The translations under genes and the position numbers were made by a program. Source: Acutalibacteraceae bacterium (GTDB lineage: Bacteria > Bacillota > Clostridia > Oscillospirales > Acutalibacteraceae). From it: DNA of 64,000 nt. Positions 36,636 to 54,834 of the stretch are shown here, piece by piece. The notes under the pieces were generated by a model. The model made no database searches, was not told the DNA's origin, and saw only the letters and a list, made by a program, of their open reading frames with translations. The stretch is taken from the NCBI GenBank assembly GCA_045590395.1, contig JAZNQX010000063.1, forward strand, positions 5,135 through 69,134. Reading direction: 5' to 3'. Every line of letters starts with the position of its first letter. Positions within the stretch are counted from its first letter, which is position 1.

Positions 36636-36982
36636 AATCAACTGAAATATTAGAAATTGCTGTAAAGGCTCTTGACTCTAAAAAGGGTCAGGATATAAAT
36701 GCAATAAAGGTTGACGACCTTACCGTTATTGCCGATTACTTTGTAATGGCAACCGCTTCTTCAAGCACGCAGGTACGCGCTCTTGCCGAGGAGGTTGAAT
36801 ACCAGTTAGACCTTAAGAATAATCCTGTTCATCATATAGAGGGCAGGGGCTCAAATTGGATATTGCTTGACTACGGCAGTGTTATAGTTCACGTTTTCCA
36901 TAGAGAAGCCCGTGAATTTTACGGACTGGACAGAACTTGGGCTGACGGCCAGCAGATAGATATAACTAAATTCCTGACATAA
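36632..36982 (+). CDS. rsfS: Ribosome silencing factor RsfS
   Basis: 116 aa: DYFVMATASSSTQVRAL, WILLDYGSVIVHVF. Confidence 0.9.
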   Translation: MKSTEILEIAVKALDSKKGQDINAIKVDDLTVIADYFVMATASSSTQVRALAEEVEYQLDLKNNPVHHIEGRGSNWILLDYGSVIVHVFHREAREFYGLDRTWADGQQIDITKFLT

Positions 36983-37000: not shown

Positions 37001-39409
37001 ATGAAACAGGAAAGATATAATTTTACTGAAATTGAAAAGAAATGGCAGGATATATGGGATAAGGAACAGCCCTTTGCCGCAAAGAATGACTATACTTTGC
37101 CCAAGTTTTACGGCCTTGTTGAGTTCCCGTATCCGTCAGGTCAGGGTCTTCATGTAGGACATCCCCGTTCATATACCGCCATTGATATAGTTGCGCGTAA
37201 AAAGCGTCTTCAGGGCTATAATGTGCTTTATCCTATGGGTTGGGATGCTTTCGGTCTTCCTACCGAAAACTTTGCAATTAAGAATCATATACACCCTGAA
37301 ATTGTTACTAAAAACAATGTAGAAAACTTTAAGCGTCAGTTAAAATCACTTGGTTTTTCTTTTGACTGGAACAGAGAAATAAATACCACCGACCCTGCTT
37401 ATTATAAGTGGACACAGTGGATATTCTTAAAGCTTTTTGAAAACGGCCTTGCTTATAAAAAGAAGATGGCTGTTAATTGGTGTACCTCTTGTAAGTGCGT
37501 TCTTGCCAATGAAGAGGTTGTAAACGGTGTGTGCGAACGCTGCGGAAGTCAGGTCATACATAAAGAAAAAAGCCAGTGGATGCTTAAAATCACCGAGTAT
37601 GCAGGAAAGCTTATTGATGACCTTGCTACTGTTGATTTTATTGACAGAGTTAAAACTCAGCAGGAAAATTGGATAGGCCGTTCCTTCGGTACTCAGGTTA
37701 AATTCACCGCTACAACAGGTGATGTATTCGAAATATACACCACCCGTGCCGATACACTTTTCGGTGCTACCTATATGGTACTCTCTCCTGAGCATCCTCT
37801 TATTGATAAATGGTCTGATAAAATTGAGAATATGGATGAAGTTCTGTCTTACAAGGCTGAGGCTGCAAAGAAATCAGACTTTGAAAGAACCGAACTCGCT
37901 AAGGACAAGACAGGTGTATGCCTTAAGGGTGTTAAGGCTATAAACCCTGTAAACAATACCGAAATTCCCATTTTTATTTCAGATTATGTTCTTATTTCTT
38001 ATGGTACAGGCGCTATTATGGCAGTTCCCGCCCATGATACACGTGACTGGGAATTCGCCAAGAAATTCGACCTTCCTATTATTGAGGTTGTAAAGGGCGG
38101 CAATGTAGAGGAAGAAGCCTTTACCGACTGCGCTACCGGTACTATGGTAAATTCGGGCTTCCTTGACGGTATGAGTGTTGAGGATGCCAAGGTTGCTATT
38201 CAGAACTGGCTTAGTGATAAGGGAATAGGCGAGAGAAAAACAAACTATAAGCTTCGTGACTGGGTATTCTCCCGTCAGCGTTATTGGGGTGAGCCTATTC
38301 CTATGGTTCACTGTGACTGTTGCGGATATGTTCCTCTGCCCGAGAACGAGCTTCCTCTGCTTTTGCCTGAGGTAGAGTCTTACGAGCCTACCGATAACGG
38401 TGAATCTCCTCTTGCTAATATTACCGAGTGGATAAACACCACCTGTCCCAAATGCGGCGGCAAGGCTGTTCGTGAAACCGACACTATGCCTCAGTGGGCC
38501 GGATCTTCCTGGTACTTCCTTCGTTACTGTGACCCCAACAATGATAAAGAACTGGCTTCTAAAGAGGCTCTTGAATACTGGGGCCCCGTTGACTGGTATA
38601 ACGGCGGTATGGAGCATACAACTCTCCATCTGCTTTATAGCCGTTTCTGGCATAAATTCCTTTATGATATCGGTGTTGTACCCAATCCTGAGCCCTACGC
38701 TAAGCGTACAAGTCACGGTATGATACTGGGTGAGAACGGCGAAAAGATGTCTAAGTCCCGAGGCAACGTAATTAACCCCGACGATATTATAAATGAGTAC
38801 GGCGCCGACACAATGCGTCTTTACGAAATGTTTATAGGTGACTTTGAAAAGGCGGCTCCCTGGAGTACCTCGTCTATCAAGGGCTGTAAGCGTTTCCTTG
38901 ACAGAGTATGGGCGCTTAAGGAAAATGTTATCGACGGTGATTCATACAGAGCAGAACTCGAAAGCGAAATTCATAAAATGATTCGCAAGGTGAGTGAAGA
39001 TATTGAAAGCCTTAAAATGAATACCGCTATTGCTTCTATGATGTCTTTCATTAATACTGTAGGCAATACTATCAACAAGGCAGAATATAAGACTCTTCTT
39101 ATCCTCCTTAACCCCTTTGCTCCTCATATAACCGAGGAAATCTGGGAGGAACTGGGCTTTGAAGGCAGACTTAATCAGGCAAGCTGGCCTCAGTATGACG
39201 AGGCTAAGTGCATTGAGTCTACCGTTGAAATTGTTATACAGATTAACGGTAAACTTCGCGGCAGAATAAATATTCCTGCCGAAATAGGCGCAGATGATGC
39301 AATTGCCCTTGCAAAAGAAGCAGAAGGTATATCTGCACTGTTCGAGGGCAAAACTATTGTCAAAGAACTTTATGTACCTAAGAAGCTTGTTAATATCGTA
39401 GTAAAATAA
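37001..39409 (+). CDS. leuS: Leucine--tRNA ligase
   Basis: 802 aa: HVGH (HIGH) motif, KMSKS and a CP1 editing domain. There is no room for a T-box leader (18 nt after rsfS). Confidence 0.97.
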
Positions 39410-39510: not shown

Positions 39511-39586
39511 GATCCATTAGCTCAGCCGGTAGAGCACATGACTTTTAATCATGGTGTCCGGAGTTCGATTCTCCGATGGGTCACCA
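39511..39586 (+). tRNA. tRNA-Lys (anticodon UUU); CCA is encoded
   Basis: GATCCATTAGCTCAGCCGGTAGAGCACATGACTTTTAATCATGGTGTCCGGAGTTCGATTCTCCGATGGGTCACCA forms a clean cloverleaf with anticodon loop CTTTTAA. Confidence 0.95.
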
Positions 39587-40088: not shown

Positions 40089-40117
40089 TTGACAACTTAA
40101 AAATATGGTGCTATACT
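40089..40117 (+). promoter_or_regulatory. Putative sigma-A promoter of T-box leader 1
   Basis: TTGACA, 17 nt, TATACT. Confidence 0.65.
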
Positions 40118-40136
40118 CTTTTCATACTTAATAAAA

Positions 40137-40400
40137 GCTGTGACGAAGACGGTCAAGAGTTTGTATTTTCAGAGAGCCGGTGGTTGCTGAAAACCGGTAA
40201 TAGAAATTCTTAAAAGACCCATCCCTTCCGAGCCGGAAGTCCGAAAGGTTATCCTAGTAGACGCTTCCCGTGATTGCTGCGTAAAGGCATAGGAATTGTT
40301 TGATTCCAAGAGTGGCGGAAAATTTCCGCAATTTGAGTGGTACCGCGAGTGTATTTTCACACCCGTCTCAAAGTTTCTTTGAGATGGGTGTTATTTTTTT
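40137..40400 (+). promoter_or_regulatory. T-box riboswitch leader 1; tentative specifier AUC (Ile) at 40221-40223
   Basis: K-turn base GCTGTGACGAAG...CTTCCGAGC, an AGAGAG bulge, the distal loop CCGGTGGTTGCTGAAAACCGG, the T-box AATTTGAGTGGTACCGCG (40330-40347), and a terminator at 40360-40390 plus a U-run. Confidence 0.9.
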
Positions 40401-40423
40401 AAAAACAGAAAGGGAGTAATTTT

Positions 40424-42691
40424 ATGAAAACCAATACTGCAAAAGAGCAACTATTAGAGATAGCTCTGCGAATTAGAGAAATGCGCGAGATTATGGGCTG
40501 GTCTATTGCAGAAATGGCTTCTAAAACGGAAGTCAGCGAGGAAAAATATATTTCTTACGAAAGTGCTGAAGCTGACATACCTTTTTCATTTATTCATAAG
40601 TGTGCATTGTGCTTTGATGTAGAGCTTACCGAGCTTTTAGAGGGACACTCTGCTCGTCTTTCAACCTATACTGTAACACGAAAGGGAAAGGGTCAGGCAA
40701 CCGCTAAAGAAGACGGCATCGATATTAAAAACCTTGCCCCTAAGTTCAGAGATAAAATTGCAGAGCCTTACTGGGTAAAATATGAATATTCTGCCGCTCA
40801 GCAAAATAAACCTATACAGCTTTCTACCCACTCGGGACAGGAATTTGACCTTATAATGAGCGGTTCTCTTAAGGTTCAGGTCGGAAATCATATTGAAATT
40901 TTAAACGAGGGCGACAGCATTTATTATAACAGCTCTACTCCTCACGGTATGATAGCTGTAGGCGGAAGTGACTGTGTTTTCTGTGCTGTTGTTCTTCCCG
41001 GCGAAGAAGTAAAGGAAGAAACGGTGCGTCGCAGTATTGTTTCTGCTAAAAATTCAGAAGCACTTGTTTGCGAAAAGTTCCTACAAACTACCGAAAACGA
41101 AAACGGCGAGCTTTTAGATATCAAATTTAAAAATACCGATGAATTCAACTTTGGCTTTGACATTGTTGACGGTATTGCAGATAAATATCCTGAAAAACTT
41201 GCTATGCTTCATATAGACAGAGAAAAGAAGGAAAGACGCTTTACCTTTAAGGATATAAAGCGTGCTTCTAATCAGTGCGCTAACTACTTTACTTCTCTCG
41301 GTATCAAGAGGGGAGATAAAGTAATGCTGGTGCTCAAACGTCATTATCAGTTCTGGTTCTGTATGGTGGCTCTTCACAAAATCGGCGCTGTGGCTATTCC
41401 TGCTACTAATCAGCTTAAAGAGCATGATTTTGAATACCGTTTCAATGCGGCAGGTGTTAACACCCTTGTTTGTACTGCCGACGGTGATACTGCAGAAATT
41501 GCCGAGCGCGCCGCCGCTAATTGTAAGAGCGTTAAAAACCTTGTGCTTGTTAACGGAAAACGCGAGGGTTGGCACGATTTTGACAGCGAATATAAACTGT
41601 TTTCGGGCAAATTTGAAAGAGAAGAAAACGCTTCAGCAGGTGAAGATACCGCCCTTATGTTCTTTACTTCGGGAACTACGGGTAATCCTAAAATGGCGGC
41701 TCATAAGCATACCTACGCTTTAGGCCATTTTGTTACCGCAAAATATTGGCATTGTTGCGAAAGAGACGGTTTACACCTTACTATTTCTGATACAGGTTGG
41801 GGTAAATCACTCTGGGGTAAGCTTTACGGTCAGTGGCTTTGCGAGGGCGCCGTATTTGTATACGACTTTGACCGCTTTGATGCAGATGAGATTCTGCCTA
41901 TGTTTGCAGAGTACAACATCACAACCTTCTGCGCACCTCCTACAATGCTTCGTATGCTTGTAAAGAGTGACCTTTCAAAATATGACCTTTCCTCAATCAA
42001 TCATATGACCACTGCAGGTGAGGCGCTGAATCCTGAAGTATTCCGTCAGTTTGAAGAAGCAACGGGACTTCAGATAATGGAGGGCTTCGGTCAGACCGAA
42101 ACTACCCTTACCATTGCAAACCTTTGCGGAACTACCCCCAAGGTTGGCGCTATGGGTAAGGCTTCTCCTCAGTATGATGTTGATATTGTTGACCTTGACG
42201 GTAATCCTGTTGCCGACGGTGAAGTAGGCGAAATAGTTGTTCATACTAAGGACGGCGTTCCCTGCGGACTGTTTAAAGAGTATTATCTTGACGAAGAAAA
42301 AACAAATGATGCTTGGCACGACGGTATGTACCATACAGGTGATACCGCTTGGCGAGATGAGGACGGATATTTCTGGTATGTAAGCCGTATTGATGATGTA
42401 ATTAAGTCTTCGGGTTACCGTATCGGACCCTTTGAAATTGAAAGCGTTATTATGGAACTTCCTTATGTTCTTGAATGCGGTGTATCTGCTGCACCCGACG
42501 AAGTAAGAGGTCAGGTTGTAAAGGCAAGTATCGTACTTGTTCCCGGAACCGCTCCTACAGAAGAGCTTAAGAAAGAAATCCAAAACTATGTAAAAGAGCA
42601 TACCGCACCTTACAAATATCCGAGAATAGTTGTGTTTAAGGACGAACTTCCCAAAACTATTAGCGGAAAAATTCAGCGAAATAAACTGTAA
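40424..42691 (+). CDS. Fusion protein: N-terminal XRE-type HTH + cupin domain (about aa 1-200) joined to an AMP-forming medium/short-chain acyl-CoA synthetase (ACSM/MACS-like)
   Basis: 755 aa. HTH: LRIREMREIMGWSIAEMASKTEVSEEKYISYE. Cupin: GQEFDLIMSGSLKVQVG...GDSIYYNSSTPHGM. ANL motifs: FFTSGTTGNPKMAAH, SDTGWGK, GFGQTE, YHTGDTAWRDEDGYFWYVSRIDDVIKSSGYRIGPFEIE and SGKIQR. Confidence 0.85.
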   Translation: MKTNTAKEQLLEIALRIREMREIMGWSIAEMASKTEVSEEKYISYESAEADIPFSFIHKCALCFDVELTELLEGHSARLSTYTVTRKGKGQATAKEDGIDIKNLAPKFRDKIAEPYWVKYEYSAAQQNKPIQLSTHSGQEFDLIMSGSLKVQVGNHIEILNEGDSIYYNSSTPHGMIAVGGSDCVFCAVVLPGEEVKEETVRRSIVSAKNSEALVCEKFLQTTENENGELLDIKFKNTDEFNFGFDIVDGIADKYPEKLAMLHIDREKKERRFTFKDIKRASNQCANYFTSLGIKRGDKVMLVLKRHYQFWFCMVALHKIGAVAIPATNQLKEHDFEYRFNAAGVNTLVCTADGDTAEIAERAAANCKSVKNLVLVNGKREGWHDFDSEYKLFSGKFEREENASAGEDTALMFFTSGTTGNPKMAAHKHTYALGHFVTAKYWHCCERDGLHLTISDTGWGKSLWGKLYGQWLCEGAVFVYDFDRFDADEILPMFAEYNITTFCAPPTMLRMLVKSDLSKYDLSSINHMTTAGEALNPEVFRQFEEATGLQIMEGFGQTETTLTIANLCGTTPKVGAMGKASPQYDVDIVDLDGNPVADGEVGEIVVHTKDGVPCGLFKEYYLDEEKTNDAWHDGMYHTGDTAWRDEDGYFWYVSRIDDVIKSSGYRIGPFEIESVIMELPYVLECGVSAAPDEVRGQVVKASIVLVPGTAPTEELKKEIQNYVKEHTAPYKYPRIVVFKDELPKTISGKIQRNKL

Positions 42692-42712
42692 TGTTAATTT
42701 TATCTTTAAATA

Positions 42713-42741
42713 TTGACAATATTCCAAAGTTGTGATACAAT
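42713..42741 (+). promoter_or_regulatory. Putative sigma-A promoter of T-box leader 2 (extended -10)
   Basis: TTGACA, 17 nt, (TGa)TACAAT. The -35 lies inside the near-palindrome AATATTGACAATATT. Confidence 0.6.
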
Positions 42742-42756
42742 AAGACGGATATTAAA

Positions 42757-43019
42757 GGCTTTGACGAAGAGTGCGCTTAATTCTTCCTTGCAGAGAAACG
42801 GTGGTTGGTGAAAACCGTTAGGTTGGAATTTTGTGTTTGTAGCTTCTGAGCCGGGGAGAAGAAAGTATTTAATATCAGTAGAACTCCTCCGTGATTGCTG
42901 CGTTAATGCATAGGAATTGTTAGATTCCAAGAGTGGCGGATTTCCGCAATTTGAGTGGTACCGCGGGTGTGAATATCGGCACTCGTCTCAAAGGCATTAC
43001 TTTGGGACGGGTGTTTTTT
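42757..43019 (+). promoter_or_regulatory. T-box riboswitch leader 2; putative specifier GUA (Val) at 42839-42841
   Basis: GGCTTTGACGAAG...CTTCTGAGCC K-turn helix, AGAGAA bulge, distal loop ACGGTGGTTGGTGAAAACCGT, T-box AATTTGAGTGGTACCGCG (42948-42965), and a terminator at 42980-43013 plus a U-run. Confidence 0.9.
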
Positions 43020-43047
43020 ACGTCCTAACGGAAATGGAGATAAACTT

Positions 43048-45336
43048 ATGGAACAGATTACAGGGCTTGATTTTAAAATCAAGGAAATGGCGGGGCGTAT
43101 CAGAGAGCTTCGCGAAATCGAAGGCTTAACAACGGAACAAATGGCAGAAAAAACCGCTGTTTCGGTGGCTGAGTATATAGAATGTGAAAATGGCAACAGT
43201 GACTTAAACTTTGCCTTTATTTACCGTTGCGCACTTGCTCTTAACGTAAATGTTACCGATATTATTGAGGGTTACAGCCCTACACTTAAATCATATACCG
43301 TTACCCGTGCAGGCTCAGGCCAGAAAATTGCACAGGCTCACGGTATGACCTATTATAACCTTGCTTATGCGTTTAAAAACCGTATTGCCGAGCCTCTTTA
43401 TGTTCGCAGTATATACAGTGAAGAAGCGCAGTCAAGGGATATTGAGCTAACTACCCACGCCGGTCAGGAGCTTGATATAATTATTGAAGGTCAGCTTATG
43501 GTTCAGGTAGGCGAGCATAAGGAAATACTGGGCCCCGGGGACAGCATTTACTATGACAGTGACGTTGCCCACGGTATGATAGCAATAGGCGGTAAGGACT
43601 GTCTTTTCTACGCTATTGTTTTAAACCCCACAGGTGAGCCTATTCCCGAGCTTTTACCCGCTAAAACTATTCTTGAGCCTAAAGCGGTTAAAAAGGATAA
43701 TAAAGAAAGAGTATACCATAAATATATAGATGTTACCGAGAACGATAACGGTACACCTGTTTCTGTAAAGTTTAAAAATACCGATAAATTCAATTTCGGT
43801 TTCGATGTTGTTGATGAAATTGCTCACAAAAGCCCTGAAAAACGTGCAATGCTTCATATATCAAGGGACGGTACAGAGCGTAGCTTTACCTTTAAGGATA
43901 TTGAAAAAGCTTCTAACCAGTGCGCCAACTACTTTAAATCTCTTGGTATTAAAAAGGGCGACCGCGTTATGTTGGTGCTTAAACGCCATTATCAGTTTTG
44001 GTTCTCAATTATTGCACTTAATAAGCTGGGTGCCATAGCTATACCTGCTACAAATCAACTTGTTGAACACGATTTTGATTACCGCTTTAAATCTGCAGGT
44101 GTTAGTACAATTATCTGTACTGCAGATGGTGATACAGCATATCAGGCTGAGAAAGCTGCTGAGAATAATCCTCAGCTTGTAAACAAGCTTATAGTTAATG
44201 GAGCGCGTGAAGGTTGGAGAAGCTTTGACGAGGAATATATCCTTTACAGCACCCACTATAAGCGTACCGAGGATACCGCCTGCGGTGACGATTTAATGCT
44301 TATGTACTTTACTTCGGGTACATCGGGCTATCCCAAAATTGCCGCACACAGCTATAAGTATCCTCTCGGACACTTCCATACTGCAAAATATTGGCACTGT
44401 GTTGACCCTGACGGACTTCACTTTACAATATCTGATACAGGCTGGGCAAAGGCTACCTGGGGCAAAATTTACGGTCAGTGGCTTTGCGAGGCAGGTATAT
44501 TCGTTTATGATTTTGACCGCTTTGATGCTGCAGAAATACTGCCCATGTTTGCAAAGCACAATATAACCACCTTCTGTGCTCCTCCTACAATGCTCCGTAT
44601 GCTTATAAAGCAGGATATAGCACAATATGATTTTTCCTCTGTTAAGCATATGACAACGGCAGGTGAGGCGCTTAATCCCGAGGTTTACCGTCAGTTTGAA
44701 AAAATTACAGGGCTTCAGATTCTCGAGGGCTTCGGCCAGACCGAAAGCACTATGATTATCGGTAATATGACGGGCGCACCCCATAAAATAGGTTCTATGG
44801 GTAAACCTGCACCTATATACGATGTTCATATTGTAGATAGCGATGGCAAAGATGTTCCTGCAGGTGAAACAGGTGAAATCGTTATAAATATTGAAAACGG
44901 TCTTCCTTGCGGACTGGCTACCTGTTACTACGGTGATGAAGAAAAAACAAAAGAAACCTGGCGCGACGGTTATTACCATACAGGAGATACCGCTTGGCGT
45001 GATGAAGACGGCTTCTACTGGTATGTAGGTCGCGTTGACGATGTTATTAAGTCTTCGGGCTACAGAATTGGGCCTTTCGAAATAGAAAGTGTTATTATGG
45101 AGCTTCCCTTCGTTCTTGAGTGCGGTGTATCTGCTGCACCGGATGAAGTAAGAGGTCAGGTTGTAAAGGCAAGTATTGTACTTGTTCCCGGAACCGAGCC
45201 TTCAGAAGAACTAAAGAAACAAATCCAGAAATATGTTAAGGATAAGACTGCACCTTATAAATATCCTCGTATAGTAGTATTTAAAGATAGTCTTCCTAAA
45301 ACTACCAGCGGAAAAATTCAAAGAAATAAGTTATAA
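43048..45336 (+). CDS. Paralogous fusion protein: XRE-type HTH + cupin joined to an AMP-forming acyl-CoA synthetase (ACSM/MACS-like)
   Basis: 762 aa with the same architecture as 40424-42691. The C-terminal roughly 120 aa are nearly identical to the paralogue, while the N-terminal sensor part and the middle of the synthetase are clearly diverged. Confidence 0.85.
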   Translation: MEQITGLDFKIKEMAGRIRELREIEGLTTEQMAEKTAVSVAEYIECENGNSDLNFAFIYRCALALNVNVTDIIEGYSPTLKSYTVTRAGSGQKIAQAHGMTYYNLAYAFKNRIAEPLYVRSIYSEEAQSRDIELTTHAGQELDIIIEGQLMVQVGEHKEILGPGDSIYYDSDVAHGMIAIGGKDCLFYAIVLNPTGEPIPELLPAKTILEPKAVKKDNKERVYHKYIDVTENDNGTPVSVKFKNTDKFNFGFDVVDEIAHKSPEKRAMLHISRDGTERSFTFKDIEKASNQCANYFKSLGIKKGDRVMLVLKRHYQFWFSIIALNKLGAIAIPATNQLVEHDFDYRFKSAGVSTIICTADGDTAYQAEKAAENNPQLVNKLIVNGAREGWRSFDEEYILYSTHYKRTEDTACGDDLMLMYFTSGTSGYPKIAAHSYKYPLGHFHTAKYWHCVDPDGLHFTISDTGWAKATWGKIYGQWLCEAGIFVYDFDRFDAAEILPMFAKHNITTFCAPPTMLRMLIKQDIAQYDFSSVKHMTTAGEALNPEVYRQFEKITGLQILEGFGQTESTMIIGNMTGAPHKIGSMGKPAPIYDVHIVDSDGKDVPAGETGEIVINIENGLPCGLATCYYGDEEKTKETWRDGYYHTGDTAWRDEDGFYWYVGRVDDVIKSSGYRIGPFEIESVIMELPFVLECGVSAAPDEVRGQVVKASIVLVPGTEPSEELKKQIQKYVKDKTAPYKYPRIVVFKDSLPKTTSGKIQRNKL

Positions 45337-45360
45337 TTAAAGGAAAGGCAGGCGAGTATT

Positions 45361-46026
45361 ATGATAGGTAAAAAAAGACTTACGCTTTTTTGCGGACATT
45401 ACGGAAGCGGTAAAACAAATATAGCCGTTAATGTTGCAATTAAGCTTAAAGAGAGCTATAATAATATCGCCCTTGCTGACCTTGACATAGTAAATCCTTA
45501 TTTCAGAACAAAGGACAGCAGTGAAGAGCTTAAAAGCAAGGGTATAAGGCTTATCTGTTCTGAGTATGCAAACTCTAATGTAGATATTCCGGCTCTCCCA
45601 CAGGATGTGTACGCCATTACCGATGATAAAACACTTAAATGTGTACTTGATATCGGCGGTGATGACAGAGGAGCACTGGTTCTGGGCAGAATTTCGGATA
45701 AAATTTCAGAGGAAAATGACTTCGAAATGCTTATGGTTATAAATTCGTTTCGTCCCTTAACCAGAGATACCGAGTCTTTAATAGAGGTTTTTTCTGAAAT
45801 AGAGGCTGCGGCAAAAATTAAATTTACAGGCCTTGTTAACAATTCAAACCTTGGTGAAGAAACCACGGCAGAGGATGTTTTAAGCTCTGTCAACTATGCT
45901 AATGATATATCAAAAGCCACAGGCCTTCCTGTAGTTATGACCTGTGTAAAAGAAGACCTGTATGAGTCTTTAAAGGACAAGATACCTAATCTTTTGGGAC
46001 TTAAACTGCAGAAGAAAATTTTGTAG
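45361..46026 (+). CDS. P-loop NTPase of unknown function (SIMIBI-like; Walker A GHYGSGKT)
   Basis: 221 aa: FCGHYGSGKTNIAVNVA, DLDIVNPYFR and GGDDRG. It sits between the acyl-CoA synthetase and the oxidoreductase genes. Confidence 0.6.
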   Translation: MIGKKRLTLFCGHYGSGKTNIAVNVAIKLKESYNNIALADLDIVNPYFRTKDSSEELKSKGIRLICSEYANSNVDIPALPQDVYAITDDKTLKCVLDIGGDDRGALVLGRISDKISEENDFEMLMVINSFRPLTRDTESLIEVFSEIEAAAKIKFTGLVNNSNLGEETTAEDVLSSVNYANDISKATGLPVVMTCVKEDLYESLKDKIPNLLGLKLQKKIL

Positions 46027-46082
46027 ATTCCACAAATTAAATTTGTGCCTTCGAATATATAATTTGCTAAGGAGTGTTTATT

Positions 46083-46289
46083 TTGGCAAAATTAACATTT
46101 AAAACCGACAACTGTAAGGGTTGCGGCCTTTGCGTAGATGCCTGTCCCAAGCAGGTACTTATTCTCGCAAATGACAAAATCAACAAAAAGGGACATCACC
46201 CTGTAGAAGCGGCAAATATTGACGCTTGTATTGGCTGTGCTTTCTGTGCAACAATGTGTCCTGACTGTATCATTAAGGTAGAAAGGTAG
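46083..46289 (+). CDS. 2-oxoacid:ferredoxin oxidoreductase delta subunit (2x[4Fe-4S] ferredoxin)
   Basis: Two CxxCxxCxxxCP motifs (CKGCGLCVDACP, CIGCAFCATMCP). The TTG at 46083 lies 8 nt after AAGGAG and is preferred over the ORF-track GTG, which overlaps the RBS. Confidence 0.8.
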   Translation: MAKLTFKTDNCKGCGLCVDACPKQVLILANDKINKKGHHPVEAANIDACIGCAFCATMCPDCIIKVER

Positions 46290-47362
46290 TGAGTAAAGTG
46301 GCAGATAAAGTTTTGATGAAGGGTAACGAAGCTATTGCCGAAGCCGCTATTGTTGCAGGCTGTCGTCATTACTTCGGTTATCCTATAACTCCCCAGACAG
46401 AAATTGCCGCTTATATGGCAAAACGTATGCCCAAAATCGGCGGAACCTTCCTTCAGGCTGAAAGTGAAATCGCCGCTATCAATATGGTATACGGCGTTGC
46501 TTCTACCGGTAAGCGTGTTATGACCTCTTCTTCAAGCCCCGGAGTTTCCCTTAAGGGTGAAGGCCTTTCTTATATTGCAGGTGCTGACCTTCCGTCCCTT
46601 ATAGTAAACGTTCAGCGCGGTGGCCCCGGCCTTGGCGGTATTCAGCCCTCTCAGTCTGACTATTTTCAGGCTACAAAGGCAGGCGGACACGGCGACTTTA
46701 AAATGATAGTTCTTGCCCCCGCCTCTGTTCAGGAAATGGCTGACCTTACTGTTAAGGGCTTTGAACTCGCTGACAAATACCGTATGACATCTATGATTCT
46801 TGCCGACGGTACTATGGGACAGATGATGGAGCCTGTTTCTCTCGATTTTGAGGTATCAGAGAAAATAGATAAGCCCTGGGCTACCACAGGAACCAAAATG
46901 GAGCGCGAGCATAATATTGTTAACTCTCTTTTCCTTGTTCCCGAAGAACTTGAAAAATCAAACTTTGAGCGTTTTGAACGCTATAAGTACATAGAGGAAA
47001 ACGAAACCATGTGGGAAGAGTATCTTATGGACGATGCAGAAATTTGTATTGCCGCATTCGGTATTGCCGCCCGTGTTTCTAAAAACGCTATAAATGAGGC
47101 AAGAAAGCAGGGTATTAAGGTTGGTCTTATCCGTCCTATTACTCTCTGGCCTTTCCCCACAAAAGCATTTAAAGAGGCTGCCGAAAAGGTAAGCAGTATT
47201 ATATCTGTTGAGCTTTCTATGGGACAGATGATAGAGGACGTTCGTCTTGCAAGTGAGAGCAAGGTTCCCGTAACCCTTTGCAACCGTGCAGGCGGTATGA
47301 TTCCTTCTCCCGAACAAGTACTCGACGCAATTAAAGAAGCAGCAAAAGGAGGCGCAAAATAA
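46289..47362 (+). CDS. 2-oxoacid:ferredoxin oxidoreductase alpha subunit (VorB/KorA type)
   Basis: 357 aa: LMKGNEAIAEAAIVAGCRHYFGYPITPQTEI is typical of the OFOR alpha N-terminus. Confidence 0.88.
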   Translation: MSKVADKVLMKGNEAIAEAAIVAGCRHYFGYPITPQTEIAAYMAKRMPKIGGTFLQAESEIAAINMVYGVASTGKRVMTSSSSPGVSLKGEGLSYIAGADLPSLIVNVQRGGPGLGGIQPSQSDYFQATKAGGHGDFKMIVLAPASVQEMADLTVKGFELADKYRMTSMILADGTMGQMMEPVSLDFEVSEKIDKPWATTGTKMEREHNIVNSLFLVPEELEKSNFERFERYKYIEENETMWEEYLMDDAEICIAAFGIAARVSKNAINEARKQGIKVGLIRPITLWPFPTKAFKEAAEKVSSIISVELSMGQMIEDVRLASESKVPVTLCNRAGGMIPSPEQVLDAIKEAAKGGAK

Positions 47363-48117
47363 TGGTAGTTTTTGATAAACCGCATGCACTTACCGATGTG
47401 CCTATGCATTATTGCCCCGGCTGTACTCACGGTATTGTTCACCGTCTTGTTGCTGAGGTTATTGACGAACTCGGTATTGAGGGCAAAACCATTGGTATAG
47501 CCCCTGTTGGCTGTTCCGTTATGGCGTATAATTATTTCGGTTGTGATATGATAGAGGCCGCTCATGGACGCGCACCTGCCGTTGCTACAGGTGTTAAGCG
47601 CGCTGACCCTGAAAATCATATAGTATTTACCTATCAGGGTGACGGTGACCTTGCTTCTATCGGTATGGCAGAAACCGTACACAGTGCCGCAAGAAATGAA
47701 AACATAACCGTTATATTCATTAACAATGCTATATACGGTATGACAGGCGGACAGATGGCTCCGACCTCTCTTCCCGGTCAGGTAACACAGACCTCACCCT
47801 ACGGCAGAGATGTAAACCATTGCGGCTATCCCGTTAAGGTTTGTGAAATGCTCTCAAAGCTTGACGGCCCTGAGTATCTCGAAAGAGTCACAGTTAACAA
47901 TGTTAAAAATGTAAAGAACGCTAAGAAGGCAATTAAAAAGGCTTTCCAGAATCAGATAGACGGTAAGGGATTTTCTCTTGTTGAGGTTGTGTCAAGTTGT
48001 CCTACCAACTGGGGTATGACACCAAAACAGGCACTTGAGTGGATTGACGAGAAAATGATTCCTTATTATCCGCTTGGCGTTTATAAAGACAGAAGCGCAG
48101 AAAAGGGGGAAGAATAA
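47362..48117 (+). CDS. 2-oxoacid:ferredoxin oxidoreductase beta subunit (TPP-binding)
   Basis: YCPGCTHG and the TPP motif GDGD...NNAIYGMTGGQ. Confidence 0.88.
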   Translation: MVVFDKPHALTDVPMHYCPGCTHGIVHRLVAEVIDELGIEGKTIGIAPVGCSVMAYNYFGCDMIEAAHGRAPAVATGVKRADPENHIVFTYQGDGDLASIGMAETVHSAARNENITVIFINNAIYGMTGGQMAPTSLPGQVTQTSPYGRDVNHCGYPVKVCEMLSKLDGPEYLERVTVNNVKNVKNAKKAIKKAFQNQIDGKGFSLVEVVSSCPTNWGMTPKQALEWIDEKMIPYYPLGVYKDRSAEKGEE

Positions 48118-48650
48118 TGGCTACTAAACAGTTTTTGTTTTCGGGATTTGGCGGTCAGGGTATTCTTTTCGCCGGTAAGTTTATGGCTTATAAAGGCCTT
48201 ATTGATGATAAGCAGGTAAGCTGGCTTCCGTCATACGGCCCCGAAATGCGCGGCGGTACAGCAAGCTGTAGCGTAATTGTCAGTGACGAGCCCGTGGGTT
48301 CTCCCATAGTATCAAAACCTGATGTGCTTATCGCTATGAATCTTCCTTCTCTTGATAAATATGAGTCTACCGTAAAGAAAGGCGGTATGATTTTCCTTGA
48401 CTCAACCCTTATTGAGCGCAAGGTAGAAAGAGATGACGTTAAGGTTTTCTATATTCCTGCCACAAAGCTGGCAAGTGATAATAATATGCCTACCCTTGCT
48501 AATATGATTATAGTAGGTAAGGTATTAAGTGAACTTAACGATTTCCAAAAAGAAAGCGTTGACGCTGCTCTTTCAAAGGTTATTTCTGCAAAACGTGCAG
48601 ATATGGCTGATATAAACCGCAAGGCTATGCAGATAGGCGCTGAAAACTAA
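48117..48650 (+). CDS. 2-oxoacid:ferredoxin oxidoreductase gamma subunit
   Basis: [14 protein letters not shown]...[10 protein letters not shown]. Confidence 0.85.
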
Positions 48651-48671
48651 TCTTAAGGAGAATTAAGGAAT

Positions 48672-49736
48672 ATGAATATTTCTATTACTAAAACTGCCTG
48701 TCCTAAAGAAAAACCCGACAGCAGTGTACTGGGCTTTGGAAAATATTTTACCGACCATATGTTTATGATGGATTATTCAAGAGATAAGGGTTGGTATAAT
48801 GCAAGAATTGTTCCCTTTGAGAATATTTCTTTGCATCCTGCCTCTACTGTTCTTCATTACGGCAGTGAGATTTTTGAGGGCCTTAAGGCTTATAGACGCA
48901 AAGACGGTAAGGTACAGCTTTTCCGTCCTATAGAGAATATCCGTCGTATGAACAGCTCTGCAGAAAGACTTTGTCTGCCTCAGATTCCTGAAGAGGACGC
49001 TATGCAGGCTCTTAAAACCTTTGTCGCTTTAGAGCAGGACTGGACTCCCTCTGCGGCAGGTACTTCACTTTATCTTCGTCCCTTTATGTTCGGTAATGAC
49101 GAAACCTTAGGTGTTCACGCTGTACATAACGCAACCTTTGTTATTATTGCTTCACCTGTAGGCAGCTACTATAAAGAGGGCATTAACCCGGTTAAAATTA
49201 TGATAGAAGACCAGGATGTTCGTGCTGTGCGCGGAGGTACCGGTTATGCTAAATGTGGCGGTAACTATGCAGCAAGTAACAGAGCAGGTGAGCGCGCTGA
49301 ACAGCAGGGCTATTCACAGGTACTCTGGCTTGATGGTGTTGAGAGAAAGTATATTGAAGAGGTTGGCGCTATGAACGTAATGTTCAAAATCAACGGCGAA
49401 ATCGTTACTCCTATGCTTTCGGGCTCAATTCTCCCCGGTATTACAAGAAAATCCTGCCTTGAGGTGCTAAGAAGCGAGGGCTATAAGGTAAGTGAAAGAC
49501 TGCTTAGCATTGATGAGCTTGAAGAGGCTATGAACAACGGTACTCTTGAAGAGGCTTGGGGTTGCGGAACTGCTGCTGTAGTTTCTCCTATTGGTGAACT
49601 TTGCTACAAGGGTGTAAAGCACCAGGTTAGCGGCGGCAAAATCGGTGAAGTTACTCAGCACCTTTACGATACCCTTACATCTATTCAGTGGGGTAATGCT
49701 GAGGATAAGTTCAACTGGACCGAGCAAATCGACTAA
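48672..49736 (+). CDS. ilvE: Branched-chain amino acid aminotransferase (fold type IV)
   Basis: 354 aa: HYGSEIFEGLKAYR, LYLRPFMFG, GGTGYAKCGGNYA and GITR. Confidence 0.92.
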   Translation: MNISITKTACPKEKPDSSVLGFGKYFTDHMFMMDYSRDKGWYNARIVPFENISLHPASTVLHYGSEIFEGLKAYRRKDGKVQLFRPIENIRRMNSSAERLCLPQIPEEDAMQALKTFVALEQDWTPSAAGTSLYLRPFMFGNDETLGVHAVHNATFVIIASPVGSYYKEGINPVKIMIEDQDVRAVRGGTGYAKCGGNYAASNRAGERAEQQGYSQVLWLDGVERKYIEEVGAMNVMFKINGEIVTPMLSGSILPGITRKSCLEVLRSEGYKVSERLLSIDELEEAMNNGTLEEAWGCGTAAVVSPIGELCYKGVKHQVSGGKIGEVTQHLYDTLTSIQWGNAEDKFNWTEQID

Positions 49737-49750
49737 TTTTAAAAAAGTGG

Positions 49751-49779
49751 TTGACAAACTAAAATTGCGGTGATATAAT
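49751..49779 (+). promoter_or_regulatory. Putative sigma-A promoter of T-box leader 3 (extended -10)
   Basis: TTGACA, 17 nt, (TGa)TATAAT. Confidence 0.65.
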
Positions 49780-49796
49780 TATCTCAAATTTTTAAA

Positions 49797-50049
49797 TGCG
49801 ATGAAGGAATTATTCTTTATATGCGCTTGTTTTCAGAGAGTCGGCGGTTGGTGAGAGCCGATACGGTAGTATAAAGTAAGTCTCGTTCCGGAGCAGAACT
49901 GCTGAAACACAGTAAGCGGTTACGGCGTGCCCCGTTATCATGGCAAAAGGCTTGTTGGAGCCTTACTGAGTGACCGTTTATACGGTAATTAGGGTGGTAC
50001 CGCGAATATTATTCGTCCCTGAAACTATTATGGTTTCAGGGGCTTTTTA
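49797..50049 (+). promoter_or_regulatory. T-box riboswitch leader 3; putative specifier CUC (Leu) at 49882-49884
   Basis: TGCGATGAAGGAA...TTCCGGAGCA K-turn helix, AGAGAG bulge, distal loop TCGGCGGTTGGTGAGAGCCGA, T-box AATTAGGGTGGTACCGCG (49987-50004), and the terminator CCCTGAAAC...GTTTCAGGG plus a U-run. Confidence 0.9.
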
Positions 50050-50079
50050 TTTGTTTTAGTTTAGAAAGGAAGAATTATT

Positions 50080-51459
50080 ATGAGAAAAGTAAGAATTGCA
50101 GATACAACTCTTTGCAGTGGTGAAGTAAGCTACAGTTTCAAGGAAAAAATTGAAATTGCAAGACAGCTTGAAAATCTAAAAATTGATATAATAGAGCTTG
50201 GCGCTATTGAAAACGCAAGAACTGATATTTTACTTGTAAAAACTATTTCTTCTTTTGTTAAATCAGGTATCCTCTCTGTTGCAGGCGGTATGACAAAAGA
50301 AAGCATAGACAATGCTGCCTCCGCGCTTTCAAATGCGGTTAATAAAAGGATAAGAATTGAACTTCCCGTGTCCCCCGTGGGTATGGAATATGTTTGTCAT
50401 AAAAAGCCTGATAAAATGCTTCCCTTTATTGAATCTCTTGTTGGTGCCGCAAAAGAAAGGGTAGAGGATGTCGAGTTCTGTGCCATTGATGCTACCCGTG
50501 CTGAAGAAGACTTTCTTAAATCTGCCATCAAAACTGCTGTAAATGCCGGTGCTACATCGGTTTCGGTTTATGACAGCGCCGCAGAAACAATGCTGCCCGA
50601 TGAGTTTGCTGATTTTGCCCGTAAGGTTTGCAAAAAGGCAGATGTAGAGGTTGGCGCATTTTGCGATAACAAAAACGGTATGGCAGTAGCCGATGCCGTA
50701 CTTGCTGTAAGAAATGGTGTTTCTGTTGTTAAGACAGCAGTAGGTACAGGTGCCGTTCCTCTTGAAACCTTTGCAGAAATGATAAATAACTGCGGTAATT
50801 CCTTTGGTATATATGCAGATATAAATTATACAAATTTACACCGTATTATAAAACAGATAAACTGGGTTAAAGAAAACTCAAAGGATGGCAAAAACAGTGT
50901 AAGCAGTGAAAGTATAGATAATACCGTCGCTCTTGACAAAGATTCTGATCGCACCGCTGTTGCTACTGCAGTGCTGAAACTCGGCTATGATTTAAGTGAT
51001 GAGGACAGCGGTAAGGTTTATGATGAATTTGTGCGTGTGGCAGAAAAGAAAAATGTTGGCTATAAAGAGCTTGATGCTATAGTTGCAAGCGTAGCCTTGC
51101 AGGTTCCTGCCACATATAAGCTTATCAATTATGTTGTAAACACAGGTAATATTATTTCTTCAAGCTCTCAGGTTGCCCTTGAAAAAGAAGGCAAAACCTA
51201 TCAGGGTGTTTCTATCGGTAGCGGTCCTATTGATGCGGCTTTCCTTGCTATTGAGCAGATAATAGGAACCCATTTTGAACTGGATGATTTCCAGATTCAG
51301 TCGGTAACAGAAGGTAAAGAGGCTATGGGTAGCGCTCTTGTAAAACTGAGAGCAAACGGAAAGCTTTATTCGGGTAACGGTATTTCCACCGACATTATAG
51401 GCGCAAGTATTCGCGCATATCTTAGTGCTGTAAACAAGATAGTTTACGAGGAGGCATAA
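50080..51459 (+). CDS. 2-isopropylmalate synthase (LeuA/HMGL) homologue with substituted catalytic residues but a retained C-terminal LeuA regulatory domain
   Basis: 459 aa. DTTLCSGE replaces DTTLRDGEQ, AFCDNKNG replaces VHCHNDLG, DSAA replaces DTVG, and GTGAVPLE replaces GIGERAGN. The C-terminal GSGPIDAAFLAIEQI...GKEAMGSALVKL is the LeuA_dimer/R domain. Confidence 0.75.
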   Translation: MRKVRIADTTLCSGEVSYSFKEKIEIARQLENLKIDIIELGAIENARTDILLVKTISSFVKSGILSVAGGMTKESIDNAASALSNAVNKRIRIELPVSPVGMEYVCHKKPDKMLPFIESLVGAAKERVEDVEFCAIDATRAEEDFLKSAIKTAVNAGATSVSVYDSAAETMLPDEFADFARKVCKKADVEVGAFCDNKNGMAVADAVLAVRNGVSVVKTAVGTGAVPLETFAEMINNCGNSFGIYADINYTNLHRIIKQINWVKENSKDGKNSVSSESIDNTVALDKDSDRTAVATAVLKLGYDLSDEDSGKVYDEFVRVAEKKNVGYKELDAIVASVALQVPATYKLINYVVNTGNIISSSSQVALEKEGKTYQGVSIGSGPIDAAFLAIEQIIGTHFELDDFQIQSVTEGKEAMGSALVKLRANGKLYSGNGISTDIIGASIRAYLSAVNKIVYEEA

Positions 51460-51461
51460 AA

Positions 51462-53966
51462 ATGAAATTCTCTTTTTCTACAAAAGGATGGCATAATATA
51501 TCCTTTGAAGAATTTTGTGAAATAGCAAAAGACCTTAAGTTTGAGGGAATTGAACTTCATAATATAAATAATCCTCTTTTTACTGATAAGGACGGCGCTT
51601 TTCACGAGCATACAGCGGCAGGAACAATAAGAAAGCTTTACGAAAAGAAGCTTTCTTTACCCTGCATTGATACTATTTGCAATATAGCAGATAATGATGA
51701 ATTTGATAAAAGCGTGGATGAAATTCTTGCCTGTATTGATATTGCAAAGCGCCTTAAAATACCCTTTATAAGACTTCACGCCGGTATGGCAGAGGATATC
51801 GAAAAGGCTACAGCCTGCGTGGTTTCTATTATTGAAAAAACCATATCCGATGCCGAGGAAAACGGGGTTACATTGCTTCTTGAAACCTCGGGTATCTTCT
51901 CTAATACCGAGATTCTCAGAGATACTCTTGAACTCTTTGCAAGTGATAGTCTTGCGGCTTCGCTTGATATGTATTCTGCATATTTCATAGGTAAAGAAGA
52001 TGCTGAACAGATTATTAAAAATCTGGGTGCTTATGTAAAACACGTTCATGTAAGGGACGCGCAAAAAGTTAACGGTAAATTGGAAAATTGTCTTATCGGT
52101 GAGGGCGAAATGCCTATTAACGATATGATGCTGGCTCTTCGCAGTGTAAATTATGACGGATATTTCTCACTGATATGGGACCCCTCATGGTGTGAGGAGC
52201 TTGACGATATGGAGATTATATTCTCTCATTTTGTCAACTTTATGAAGCAGTATGGTGATATTTCTAAAAACGAAACTACACTTTACTACAACAAAACTCA
52301 TACGGGAAAATTTGTGTGGAAAAAGGATTTACTTATTGACCTTACCTTCCCACAGGTGCTTGACAGAATGGCAGAGGAATTTCCTGACCAGTATGCATTT
52401 AAGTACACCACCCTTGATTATACCCGTACCTACAGCCAGTTCAGAGATGACGTTGATACCTTTGCCAGAGCCCTTGTTTCTATGGGCGTAAAGGCAGGTA
52501 CCAAGGTAGCTGTATGGGCTTCGAATGTGCCTCAGTGGTATATTTCCTTCTGGGCGGCTACAAAAATAGGTGCCGTACTTGTTACGGTTAACACCGCTTA
52601 TAAAATTCACGAGGCTGAGTATCTGCTTAAGCAGTCGGATACCCATACCCTTATTATGACTCAGGGAAGCAAGGATACAAACTACGGCGAAATTATAGCC
52701 CGTCTTTGTCCTGAGCTTGAAACTATGAAGTCAGGAAGCGCTCTTCACAGCAAAAAACTTCCTTTCCTTCGTAATGTAATTACCGTAGGCTTTAAACAGA
52801 AGGGCTGTATGACCTGGAATGACGCCTTGGCACGTTCTATTGATACCCCTGTGGAAGAGGTTTACAGAATGGCGGCGGCTGTTGATAAGGACGACGTTTG
52901 TAATATGCAGTATACTTCGGGTACTACAGGATTTCCTAAGGGTGTTATGCTTACTCACTATAATGTTGTAAATAACGGAAAGTATATCGGCGACCATATG
53001 GATCTTTCTACCGCAGACAGAATGATGATACAGGTGCCTATGTTCCATTGCTTTGGTATGGTACTTTCTATGACCGCGTCTATGACTCATGGTACAACTA
53101 TGTATCCTATGCCGTATTTTTCACCAAAGCCTTCTCTCGCTTGTGTTCATAATGACCATTTTCCCGCCTTTATCGGCGTACCTACCATGTTTATTGCTAT
53201 GATGCAGCACCCTGATTTTGAAAAAACCGACTTTTCTTATATGCGTGTGGGCATTATGGCGGGCTCTAACTGTCCTGCCGACCTTATGAAACAGGCAACA
53301 GAGGTTATGAATATGAAGGAAATTGTATCTGTTTACGGTCAGACCGAAGCGTCACCCGGTTGCACTATGAGTAGCTGGTATGATTCTCTTGAGGTTAGAA
53401 CCGAAACCGTAGGCAGCGCATTTGCTAATGTTGAGTGTAAGATAATCGACCCCGAAACAGGGGAGGACTGCCCTGACGGAGTTAACGGTGAGTTTGTTGC
53501 CCGTGGCTATAATATAATGAAGGGCTATTATAAAATGCCTAAGGCTACAGCGGCGGCTATTGATAAGGACGGTTGGCTTCACACAGGCGACCTAGCTTGC
53601 AGACGCCCTGACGGAAACTATCTTATAACAGGTCGTCTTAAGGATATGATTATCAGAGGCGGAGAAAACATTTATCCTAAGGAAATTGAGGAATTTATAT
53701 TCACTAATCCTAAGGTAAGTGATGTTCAGGTTATAGGTGTTCCCGATAAGCAGTACGGCGAAGAAATTATGGCCTGTATTATTCTTAAAGAGGGCGAAAC
53801 TATGACCGAAGAAGAAATAAAGGGTTATATTTCCGCCAATATGGCGCGTCATAAGGTTCCTCGCTATATTGATTTTGTAGATAAGTTCCCAATGAATGCG
53901 GCAGGTAAAATACTTAAGTACAAAATGAGAGAGGAAGCCGCCAAAAAACTGGGACTTGATGAGTAA
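51462..53966 (+). CDS. Fusion protein: xylose-isomerase-like TIM barrel (sugar phosphate isomerase/epimerase family, about aa 1-270) joined to an AMP-dependent acyl-CoA synthetase/ligase
   Basis: 834 aa. The N-terminus has FEGIELHN...LLLET...HVHVRD TIM-barrel features. The C-terminus has YTSGTTGFPKGVMLTH, VYGQTEASP, TGDLACRRPDGNYLITGRLKDMIIRGGENIYPKEIE and AGKILK. Confidence 0.8.
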   Translation: MKFSFSTKGWHNISFEEFCEIAKDLKFEGIELHNINNPLFTDKDGAFHEHTAAGTIRKLYEKKLSLPCIDTICNIADNDEFDKSVDEILACIDIAKRLKIPFIRLHAGMAEDIEKATACVVSIIEKTISDAEENGVTLLLETSGIFSNTEILRDTLELFASDSLAASLDMYSAYFIGKEDAEQIIKNLGAYVKHVHVRDAQKVNGKLENCLIGEGEMPINDMMLALRSVNYDGYFSLIWDPSWCEELDDMEIIFSHFVNFMKQYGDISKNETTLYYNKTHTGKFVWKKDLLIDLTFPQVLDRMAEEFPDQYAFKYTTLDYTRTYSQFRDDVDTFARALVSMGVKAGTKVAVWASNVPQWYISFWAATKIGAVLVTVNTAYKIHEAEYLLKQSDTHTLIMTQGSKDTNYGEIIARLCPELETMKSGSALHSKKLPFLRNVITVGFKQKGCMTWNDALARSIDTPVEEVYRMAAAVDKDDVCNMQYTSGTTGFPKGVMLTHYNVVNNGKYIGDHMDLSTADRMMIQVPMFHCFGMVLSMTASMTHGTTMYPMPYFSPKPSLACVHNDHFPAFIGVPTMFIAMMQHPDFEKTDFSYMRVGIMAGSNCPADLMKQATEVMNMKEIVSVYGQTEASPGCTMSSWYDSLEVRTETVGSAFANVECKIIDPETGEDCPDGVNGEFVARGYNIMKGYYKMPKATAAAIDKDGWLHTGDLACRRPDGNYLITGRLKDMIIRGGENIYPKEIEEFIFTNPKVSDVQVIGVPDKQYGEEIMACIILKEGETMTEEEIKGYISANMARHKVPRYIDFVDKFPMNAAGKILKYKMREEAAKKLGLDE

Positions 53967-54785: not shown

Positions 54786-54790
54786 GGCAG

Positions 54791-54834
54791 AAAAGCCGCG
54801 AAGTAAAAAAACTTCGCGGCTTTTTTATTTTTTT
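54791..54834 (+). terminator. Strong intrinsic terminator closing the Leu-T-box operon
   Basis: AAAAGCCGCGAAGT-AAAAAA-ACTTCGCGGCTTTT followed by TTATTTTTTT. Confidence 0.85.

Follow-up and report, generated by a model that had tools for sequence, protein, structure and literature searches.

Three T-box leaders with isoleucine, valine and leucine specifiers head a probable branched-acid salvage cluster in herbivore-gut Clostridia

Introduction

Why would three T-box leaders, one for each branched-chain amino acid (BCAA), stand in front of genes for acyl-coenzyme A (CoA) ligases? The question is raised by a 64,000-nt stretch of DNA, here called the window, from an Acutalibacteraceae bacterium (GCA_045590395.1, contig JAZNQX010000063.1, positions 5,135-69,134, forward strand). 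An earlier note on this DNA had assigned the leaders to isoleucine, valine and leucine and had described an unusual regulon for carboxylic-acid activation. Our answer, to which we give a probability of roughly 0.7, is that the three T-boxes gate the salvage of BCAAs from branched short-chain fatty acids in herbivore-gut Clostridia.

T-boxes sense the charging of a tRNA. Stem I binds the cognate tRNA through a specifier codon and a distal platform. An uncharged tRNA pairs through its 3' end with a UGGU bulge, which stabilises the antiterminator, and RNA polymerase reads through into the genes downstream. With a charged tRNA, it is the overlapping terminator that forms.

Results

Three full-length T-box leaders

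We scanned the whole window with Rfam cmscan and found three matches to the T-box model RF00230, all on the + strand and each covering model positions 1-219 of 219. Leader 1 (Ile; 40131-40400) matched over 40131-40373 with 99.6 bits (E 1e-20), leader 2 (Val; 42752-43022) over 42752-42993 with 95.6 bits (E 1e-19) and leader 3 (Leu; 49792-50052) over 49792-50023 with 133.3 bits (E 2e-29). All three exceed the gathering score of 93 bits, which bears out the claim that these are genuine T-boxes. Every part that had been listed for each of them, from the promoter, kink-turn (K-turn), AGAGAG or AGAGAA bulge and distal loop to the T-box 18-mer and the terminator, is present, and all three T-box sequences carry the UGGU bulge, again as the earlier note had stated.

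Each leader has its own sigma-A-type promoter on the + strand with a TG extension and 11-12 of 12 consensus matches. The Ile leader promoter (40089-40117) reads TTGACA-17-TATACT and the Leu leader promoter (49751-49779) reads TTGACA-17-TATAAT. The Val leader promoter (42713-42741; TTGACA-17-TACAAT) starts 22 nt past the stop codon of the first ligase gene. Downstream of the promoters, Stem I occupies 40137-40233, 42758-42851 and 49798-49894 in leaders 1, 2 and 3, respectively. The T-box 18-mer is AATTTGAGTGGTACCGCG in leaders 1 and 2 (40330-40347 and 42948-42965) and AATTAGGGTGGTACCGCG in leader 3 (49987-50004), and it is followed in each case by a terminator hairpin with a U-run (40359-40391, 42978-43015 and 50015-50043). 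The segments from T-box to terminator fold with energies of -26.3 (40330-40400), -27.5 (42948-43022) and -22.9 kcal/mol (49987-50052), with z-scores of -4.1 to -6.0. In each leader the 3' arm of the antiterminator, as placed by the Rfam alignment, is the 5' arm of the terminator.

For comparison, we collected related loci by a one-genome-per-species scan with alignment of both ligases of the cluster, which yielded 252 stretches, and retained the best 80. All 80 are from uncultured metagenome-assembled genomes (MAGs) recovered from the guts of goat, sheep, yak, buffalo, deer, horse, rabbit and similar hosts; their labels are Acutalibacteraceae, Oscillospiraceae, Christensenellaceae or Clostridia. 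Their orthologues of the first ligase are 74-95% identical to it. Since these loci are close relatives, the leader counts given below are not counts of independent events. The leader promoters are kept in the orthologues, and the Ile promoter is conserved in 70 orthologous leaders. In an alignment of 128 leader sequences, the AGAGA bulge is near-invariant, and little or no variation is seen in the base helix of the K-turn or in the distal GGTTG(G/C)TGNNA loop; within the distal loop, GGTTGGTGNNA, the G, T, G and A are the same in all 128 sequences. The three leaders are thus almost certainly T-box riboswitches of the canonical, transcription-attenuating type. As RNAs they are ordinary T-boxes, and the riboswitch mechanism itself is already known.

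Isoleucine, valine and leucine specifiers

We next read the specifier codons from the RF00230 alignment, the check that the earlier note had proposed. Model positions 91-93 hold ATC in leader 1 (40221-40223), GTA in leader 2 (42839-42841) and CTC in leader 3 (49882-49884), identical to the triplets that had been read by eye. Position 94 is C, G and G, respectively, and is followed by the 4-bp helix above the K-turn. To place these triplets among their relatives, a Stem I covariance model was built from the 128 leaders and used to search the window as well as the 80 loci, with pairing not required. It recovered 144 homologous Stem I elements, with ATC in 76, GTA in 52, CTC in 14 and CTG and CCC in one each. 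The specifier tracks the gene that lies within 450 nt downstream: an orthologue of ligase 1 follows 75 of 75 ATC leaders, an orthologue of ligase 2 follows 49 of 49 GTA leaders and a LeuA-like gene follows all 15 CTC or CTG leaders. In every locus with both the Ile and the Val leader, the split between the two specifiers is fixed. The extra Leu leaders in relatives were confirmed by independent Rfam matches on six loci. The CCC (Pro) element is a Stem I at L060:14676-14769 that belongs to a T-box unrelated to the cluster.

The earlier note had also called for covariation in related leaders, and Stem I supplies it. In the model-based alignment 92.4% of the Stem I pairs are complementary, against 69.8% in column shuffles and 34-45% when the partners are slid, and 19 of the 21 pairs vary on both sides. 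A MAFFT-only alignment agrees, where 100% pairing is partly by construction because the parser used earlier demanded that helices 1 and 2 be paired; the independent evidence for these two helices is the model-based alignment and the kinds of compensatory change. In the K-turn, UGA...GA flanks a 2-bp and a 4-bp helix that are paired at 100% and 99.7%. A base pair of the K-turn changes from G-C to A-U, and in the upper helix all four pairs vary on both sides. This upper helix sets the register of the specifier, and its compensatory changes convert GAAG/CTTC to GGAG/CTCC, AAAG/CTTT, GAGG/CCTC, GAAA/TTTC, GGAA/TTCC, GGCA/TGCC or GATA/TATC.

The base 3' of the specifier is a purine in 56 of the 76 Ile leaders (A in 55, G in one) and C in the other 20. 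Because these 20 share the C that follows ATC in the window, we consider it a tolerated variant. The same C had raised a different reading of leader 1, in which GGTC (40152-40155) pairs with GACC (40216-40219) and exposes AAA (40212-40214, Lys) instead of ATC. Such a pairing can be drawn in the window sequence, but the Rfam alignment does not use it, the register helix of the Ile reading covaries, and the AAAAGACC stretch on which the Lys reading depends varies freely in the orthologues (TGAAACCC, AATGCCCC, AGTGGCCC and others), whereas all 76 leaders keep ATC unchanged. We therefore rejected the AAA specifier, whose sequence is not conserved among orthologues, and leave it next to no chance of being right. 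The Ile assignment had been thought the weakest of the three; by comparison with relatives it turns out to be the best supported. AUC, GUA and CUC are thus very probably read as Ile, Val and Leu codons. The earlier note had added that the ileS, valS and leuS leaders of Bacillus carry these codons too, which is probably so.

Three operons in series

The T-boxes belong to a single co-directional cluster at 40.1-54.8 kb of the window, with all genes on the + strand. The Ile leader precedes one gene, ligase 1 (40424-42691; 755 residues), in which Pfam identifies HTH_19, Cupin_2 and AMP-forming acyl-CoA ligase domains and for which we predict 2-methylbutyrate-CoA ligase activity. The operon of the Val leader begins with a paralogue of the same helix-turn-helix (HTH), cupin and ligase composition, ligase 2 (43048-45336; 762 residues), a predicted isobutyrate-CoA ligase. 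It continues with a conserved P-loop, CbiA/ParA-like open reading frame (ORF; 45361-46026; 221 residues) and with the genes of a 2-oxoisovalerate:ferredoxin oxidoreductase (VOR). These encode a VorD-like ferredoxin subunit (46074-46289; 71 residues), recognised from its ORF translation and synteny and carrying two CxxCxxCxxxCP motifs of the 2x[4Fe-4S] type, the alpha subunit VorB (46289-47362; NF005507, 547.7 bits against a cut-off of 399), a beta subunit that binds thiamine pyrophosphate (47362-48117; Pfam) and a gamma subunit (48117-48650; Pfam). Across 46289-48650 the Pfam domains are POR_N, PFOR_II, TPP_enzyme_C and POR. The last gene of this operon encodes the branched-chain amino acid aminotransferase IlvE (48672-49736; NF009897, 483 bits against 307; TIGR01123, 402 against 250). 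Behind the Leu leader lie a LeuA-like gene (50080-51459; 459 residues; Pfam HMGL-like and LeuA_dimer domains), a fusion of an AP_endonuc_2 domain, a xylose-isomerase-like TIM barrel, to an AMP-forming acyl-CoA ligase (TIM-ligase; 51462-53966; 834 residues) and an Amidohydro_2 family protein (53970-54785; 271 residues; Pfam, 115 bits). In one point the earlier description of the leaders as heading ligase operons is inaccurate: a ligase comes first behind leaders 1 and 2, but behind leader 3 the LeuA-like gene does.

Genes within the operons overlap or lie 2-47 nt apart, and we found no strong terminator inside them. A strong intrinsic terminator (54789-54826, +) closes the cluster just 5' of mraZ and the dcw (cell-division and cell-wall) genes. 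No terminator was found between the ligase 1 stop and the Val promoter (42691-42757) or between the ilvE stop and the Leu promoter (49736-49797), so the three T-boxes stand in series on a 14.7-kb co-directional array. The gene order of the cluster is conserved among the related loci. In some lineages the module of Ile leader and ligase occurs alone in an unrelated context, with neither VOR nor IlvE nearby. In two relatives (L037 and L062) the vor genes, accompanied by ilvE in L037, sit behind the Ile-leader ligase instead.

The P-loop ORF is syntenic in most loci. Its Pfam CbiA match is marginal (25.6 bits against a cut-off of 25.4), ParA/NUBPL matches are below threshold, and there was no NCBIfam match. 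Its sole PDB match, CodY (E 0.014), is probably due to chance and was rejected. As a guess, the product may help to mature the Fe-S oxidoreductase.

Ligases 1 and 2 are related to enzymes for alpha-branched acids

Ligases 1 and 2 are 64% identical as proteins, and at the nucleotide level their coding sequences share 69% identity. The catalytic motifs of both are intact. Their ligase core (residues ~217-755) aligns end to end with the best PDB match of ligase 1, MacsMa of Methanosarcina acetivorans (3ETC, E 1.5e-188), whose preferred substrate is 2-methylbutyrate (PMC10455477). The best NCBIfam model for both ligases is MbcS (NF047394), with 438.9 bits for ligase 1 and 428.3 bits for ligase 2; neither reaches the equivalog cut-off of 850. 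MbcS of Staphylococcus aureus is selective for 2-methylbutyrate and isobutyrate and works poorly with isovalerate (PMC10026030). Its demonstrated role is the supply of primers for branched membrane fatty acids (PMC10026030, PMC11167679). We conclude from these scores that ligases 1 and 2 are relatives of MbcS and not MbcS itself. They share their ligase core with both reference enzymes, which favour alpha-branched acids (PMC10455477, PMC10026030). MacsMa is without the N-terminal HTH_19 and Cupin_2 module of about 200 residues, and MbcS serves lipid priming rather than amino acid synthesis.

This N-terminal module (40424-41068 in ligase 1; 43048-43700 in ligase 2) consists of an XRE-type HTH and a cupin in both proteins, and it had no PDB match. 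Among the best 150 matches in 1.84 billion representatives at 50% identity, only P0241, P0242 and P0244 appear to be full-length fusions of HTH, cupin and ligase, and the other relatives among those 150 are unfused proteins of 540-600 residues. The role of the module may be that of a class-specific ligand sensor or of a trigger-enzyme domain. A search around the Ile and Val promoters for a conserved palindrome that could serve as an HTH operator found none; only the -35 element, the extended -10 element and an A-rich upstream tract are conserved there. Between 64 orthologues of ligase 1 and 39 of ligase 2, 14 residues separate the two classes, and six of the 14 lie at residues 96-120, the N-terminal edge of the cupin.

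Between leaders 1 and 2, identity is 81% over the stretch from Stem II to the T-box and only 65% in Stem I. Together with the identity of the coding sequences, this suggests that a leader and its ligase were duplicated in tandem and that the specifier switched afterwards. T-box duplication followed by a change of specificity is known in Firmicutes (PMC3766115, PMC2494555). The pair of leaders and ligases resembles those cases in looking like a tandem duplicate, and it differs from them in that the change between Ile and Val goes with a duplicated enzyme, not with a transporter or an aminoacyl-tRNA synthetase.

The leucine operon encodes a conserved trio

The first gene behind the Leu leader scores below the cut-offs of both NCBIfam 2-isopropylmalate synthase models (NF002086, 277.6 bits against 532; TIGR00973, 250.7 against 598.7), and for this reason we name it only LeuA-like. 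It matches the 2-isopropylmalate synthase 3EWB in the PDB (E 1.7e-29). The ligase of this operon is 26% identical to ligase 1 and falls in another clade, with 644 bits to PRK12583 against a cut-off of 832. A separate clade would fit a different, beta-branched substrate, and the TIM-ligase is possibly an isovalerate-CoA ligase. The TIM barrel matches only weak or uncharacterised PDB entries, and the best PDB match of the Amidohydro_2 protein, 3IRS, is likewise uncharacterised. The LeuA-like gene, the TIM-ligase and the Amidohydro_2 gene form a conserved unit, preceded in all 15 cases by a T-box with a CTC or CTG specifier. The trio may carry out an undescribed step towards leucine.

Salvage of branched acids and the alternatives to it

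What do the three operons do together? T-boxes induce on uncharged cognate tRNA, and their cargo should therefore supply the amino acid concerned. By the same regulatory logic we infer an anabolic direction for the enzymes. An AMP-forming ligase would convert a branched acid to its acyl-CoA, VorDBAC with reduced ferredoxin would reductively carboxylate the acyl-CoA to a 2-oxo acid, and IlvE would transaminate the 2-oxo acid to the amino acid. Under the Ile leader, ligase 1 would act on 2-methylbutyrate; under the Val leader, ligase 2 would act on isobutyrate, with VOR and IlvE encoded alongside it. The Leu leader would control a LeuA-like enzyme that makes leucine from 2-oxoisovalerate and a ligase possibly for isovalerate. 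Each branch would be gated by its own uncharged tRNA.

The oxidoreductase and the aminotransferase that such a route requires are both there: VorB above its cut-off, the beta, gamma and ferredoxin subunits, and IlvE. Considering that VorDBAC, IlvE and a LeuA-like gene are in the operons, we suggest that the regulon is one of BCAA biosynthesis by an unusual salvage route. The earlier note had excluded ilv and leu genes from it, which does not hold with VorDBAC and IlvE behind the Val leader and a LeuA-like gene behind the Leu leader. Its observation of one leader per BCAA stands, with ATC, GTA and CTC; its idea of a generic regulon for carboxylic-acid activation has to give way, given the VOR, IlvE and LeuA-like genes alongside the ligases. 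Homology, operon structure and regulatory logic make it probable that the cargo is an anabolic pathway from acids to amino acids. That each ligase takes one specific acid is a prediction with about even odds. A wider proposal is doubtful, namely that this is a complete tRNA-gated system in which cross-fed branched acids replace de novo BCAA synthesis, each amino acid has a ligase dedicated to it, the HTH-cupin modules are sensors or trigger domains and the trio is an undescribed Leu route.

Several observations weigh against the salvage proposal. The substrate specificity of the ligases is extrapolated, since the MbcS scores fall far below the equivalog cut-off. VOR and IlvE stand behind the Val leader only, though all three branches require both, and the TIM barrel, the Amidohydro_2 protein and the divergent LeuA have no chemistry in the scheme. 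On the side of the RNA, the S-turn of the specifier loop (consensus AGUA/GAA) is degenerate in all three leaders, and the window Ile leader has C in place of the usual purine after its specifier, as do 20 of its 76 relatives. The Ile and Val leaders exceed the Rfam gathering score by only 3-7 bits, and some orthologous Ile/Val leaders (L056, L078, L037 and others) reach 60-73 bits in the Stem I model and are unreported by Rfam at the gathering threshold; routine annotation may overlook this subgroup. Finally, genes for tRNA-Ile, tRNA-Val or tRNA-Leu(GAG) were found neither in the window nor in the 54 loci scanned for them.

The weakness of the ligase scores opens the way to other substrates. 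All three ligases are under their equivalog cut-offs and have unusual N-terminal domains, HTH-cupin or TIM barrel, and two parts of the conserved trio are unexplained. The ligases might thus act on 2-oxo acids, 2-hydroxy acids or amino acids, and the Leu operon might encode an undescribed route with a catalytic TIM barrel and Amidohydro_2 enzyme. This is rather unlikely considering that the very strong MacsMa match (E 1.5e-188) spans the whole ligase core, that the co-operonic VOR needs an acyl-CoA substrate and that branched acids account for every gene of the ligase 1 and ligase 2 operons. If the substrates are branched acids, the acyl-CoAs could still serve lipids, with the ligases making branched primers and the T-boxes responding to scarcity of the BCAAs from which primers normally come. 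The demonstrated role of MbcS, the best NCBIfam match, is primer supply (PMC10026030, PMC11167679), and the lineages in which the Ile-leader ligase has no VOR or IlvE nearby are in keeping with it. Nevertheless, priming requires neither VOR nor IlvE, which share an operon with the Val ligase in most loci, nothing in priming calls for the LeuA-like gene of the Leu operon, and one leader per amino acid suits amino acid supply better. We therefore consider lipid-primer supply an unlikely main function, though the two roles may coexist.

The direction of the pathway could also be the opposite one. Annotations usually treat VOR as catabolic. Both VOR and IlvE are reversible, and the VorB family bears the name dehydrogenase; IlvE and VOR might then oxidise BCAAs to acyl-CoAs, with the ligases running in reverse, or being unrelated, and branched acids released. 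However, T-boxes induce when the amino acid is scarce, at which point its breakdown would be counter-productive. AMP-forming ligases normally run in the activating direction, and the same regulon includes a LeuA-like biosynthetic enzyme. A catabolic function is for these reasons very improbable, and salvage of branched acids remains the reading that we prefer.

Relation to known T-boxes and to branched-acid carboxylation

The leaders share with known RF00230 T-boxes (Bacillus subtilis tyrS, ileS, valS, leuS and ilv-leu) the K-turn, specifier loop, AG bulge and distal loop of Stem I, Stems II and III, the UGGN bulge, the overlapping terminator and the use of one specifier codon per amino acid. 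They differ in the degenerate S-turns, in the C that follows the Ile specifier in about a quarter of the Ile leaders and, above all, in their cargo, which consists of acyl-CoA ligases, a ferredoxin-dependent 2-oxoacid oxidoreductase and fusion proteins and not of aminoacyl-tRNA synthetases, transporters or de novo ilv/leu genes. Two surveys of T-box regulons (PMC2494555, PMC3766115) never mention CoA and, by the terms searched, contain no acyl-CoA ligase or oxidoreductase. More broadly, we found no precedent in the searchable literature for T-box control of acyl-CoA ligases, VOR or reductive carboxylation, which does not prove that there is none. If salvage is correct, the T-box regulon would extend to carboxylic-acid activation and ferredoxin-dependent CO2 fixation.

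The predicted chemistry, from acid to acyl-CoA to 2-oxo acid to amino acid, is that of the branched-acid carboxylation described for the rumen by Allison, Bryant and Robinson and for Methanobrevibacter ruminantium. In this rumen methanogen, isoleucine is proposed to arise from 2-methylbutyrate by reductive carboxylation (PMC2812497). The reference list of PMC10701908 includes work on the carboxylation of isovalerate to leucine (Allison 1966) and on the growth-factor role of volatile fatty acids in rumen cellulolytic cocci (Allison 1958). Isoacids serve as feed additives for ruminants (PMC12272956). The habitat agrees as well, with 80 of 80 related loci coming from MAGs of ruminant or other herbivore guts. 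The difference lies in the kind of evidence: rumen carboxylation is known from physiology and labelling, whereas here the genes and a tRNA-based regulator are proposed from sequence. In the literature searched we found no paper on dedicated activating enzymes or a regulator for this process in gut Firmicutes.

The cluster offers candidate genes for a nutritional trait that has been cited for rumen bacteria since 1958. Its specifier codons act as built-in labels, marking one ligase for Ile, one ligase for Val and an operon for Leu, and so provide three testable predictions of enzyme and substrate. This is a gain for annotation, as the only names that databases now give to these proteins are 'AMP-binding protein' and 'cupin domain-containing protein'. 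It also draws attention to two unstudied fusion architectures, HTH-cupin-ligase and TIM-barrel-ligase.

Genes next to the cluster

Upstream of the cluster lies leuS (37001-39409), which has no RF00230 match upstream; the preceding ORF ends at 36982. Between leuS and leader 1 is a tRNA-Lys(UUU) gene (39511-39586) that has a consensus promoter (39459) and a terminator (39587) of its own. The remaining genes of the window are the housekeeping genes of a spore-forming Firmicute. The order of leuS, tRNA-Lys and cluster is retained in the closest relatives.

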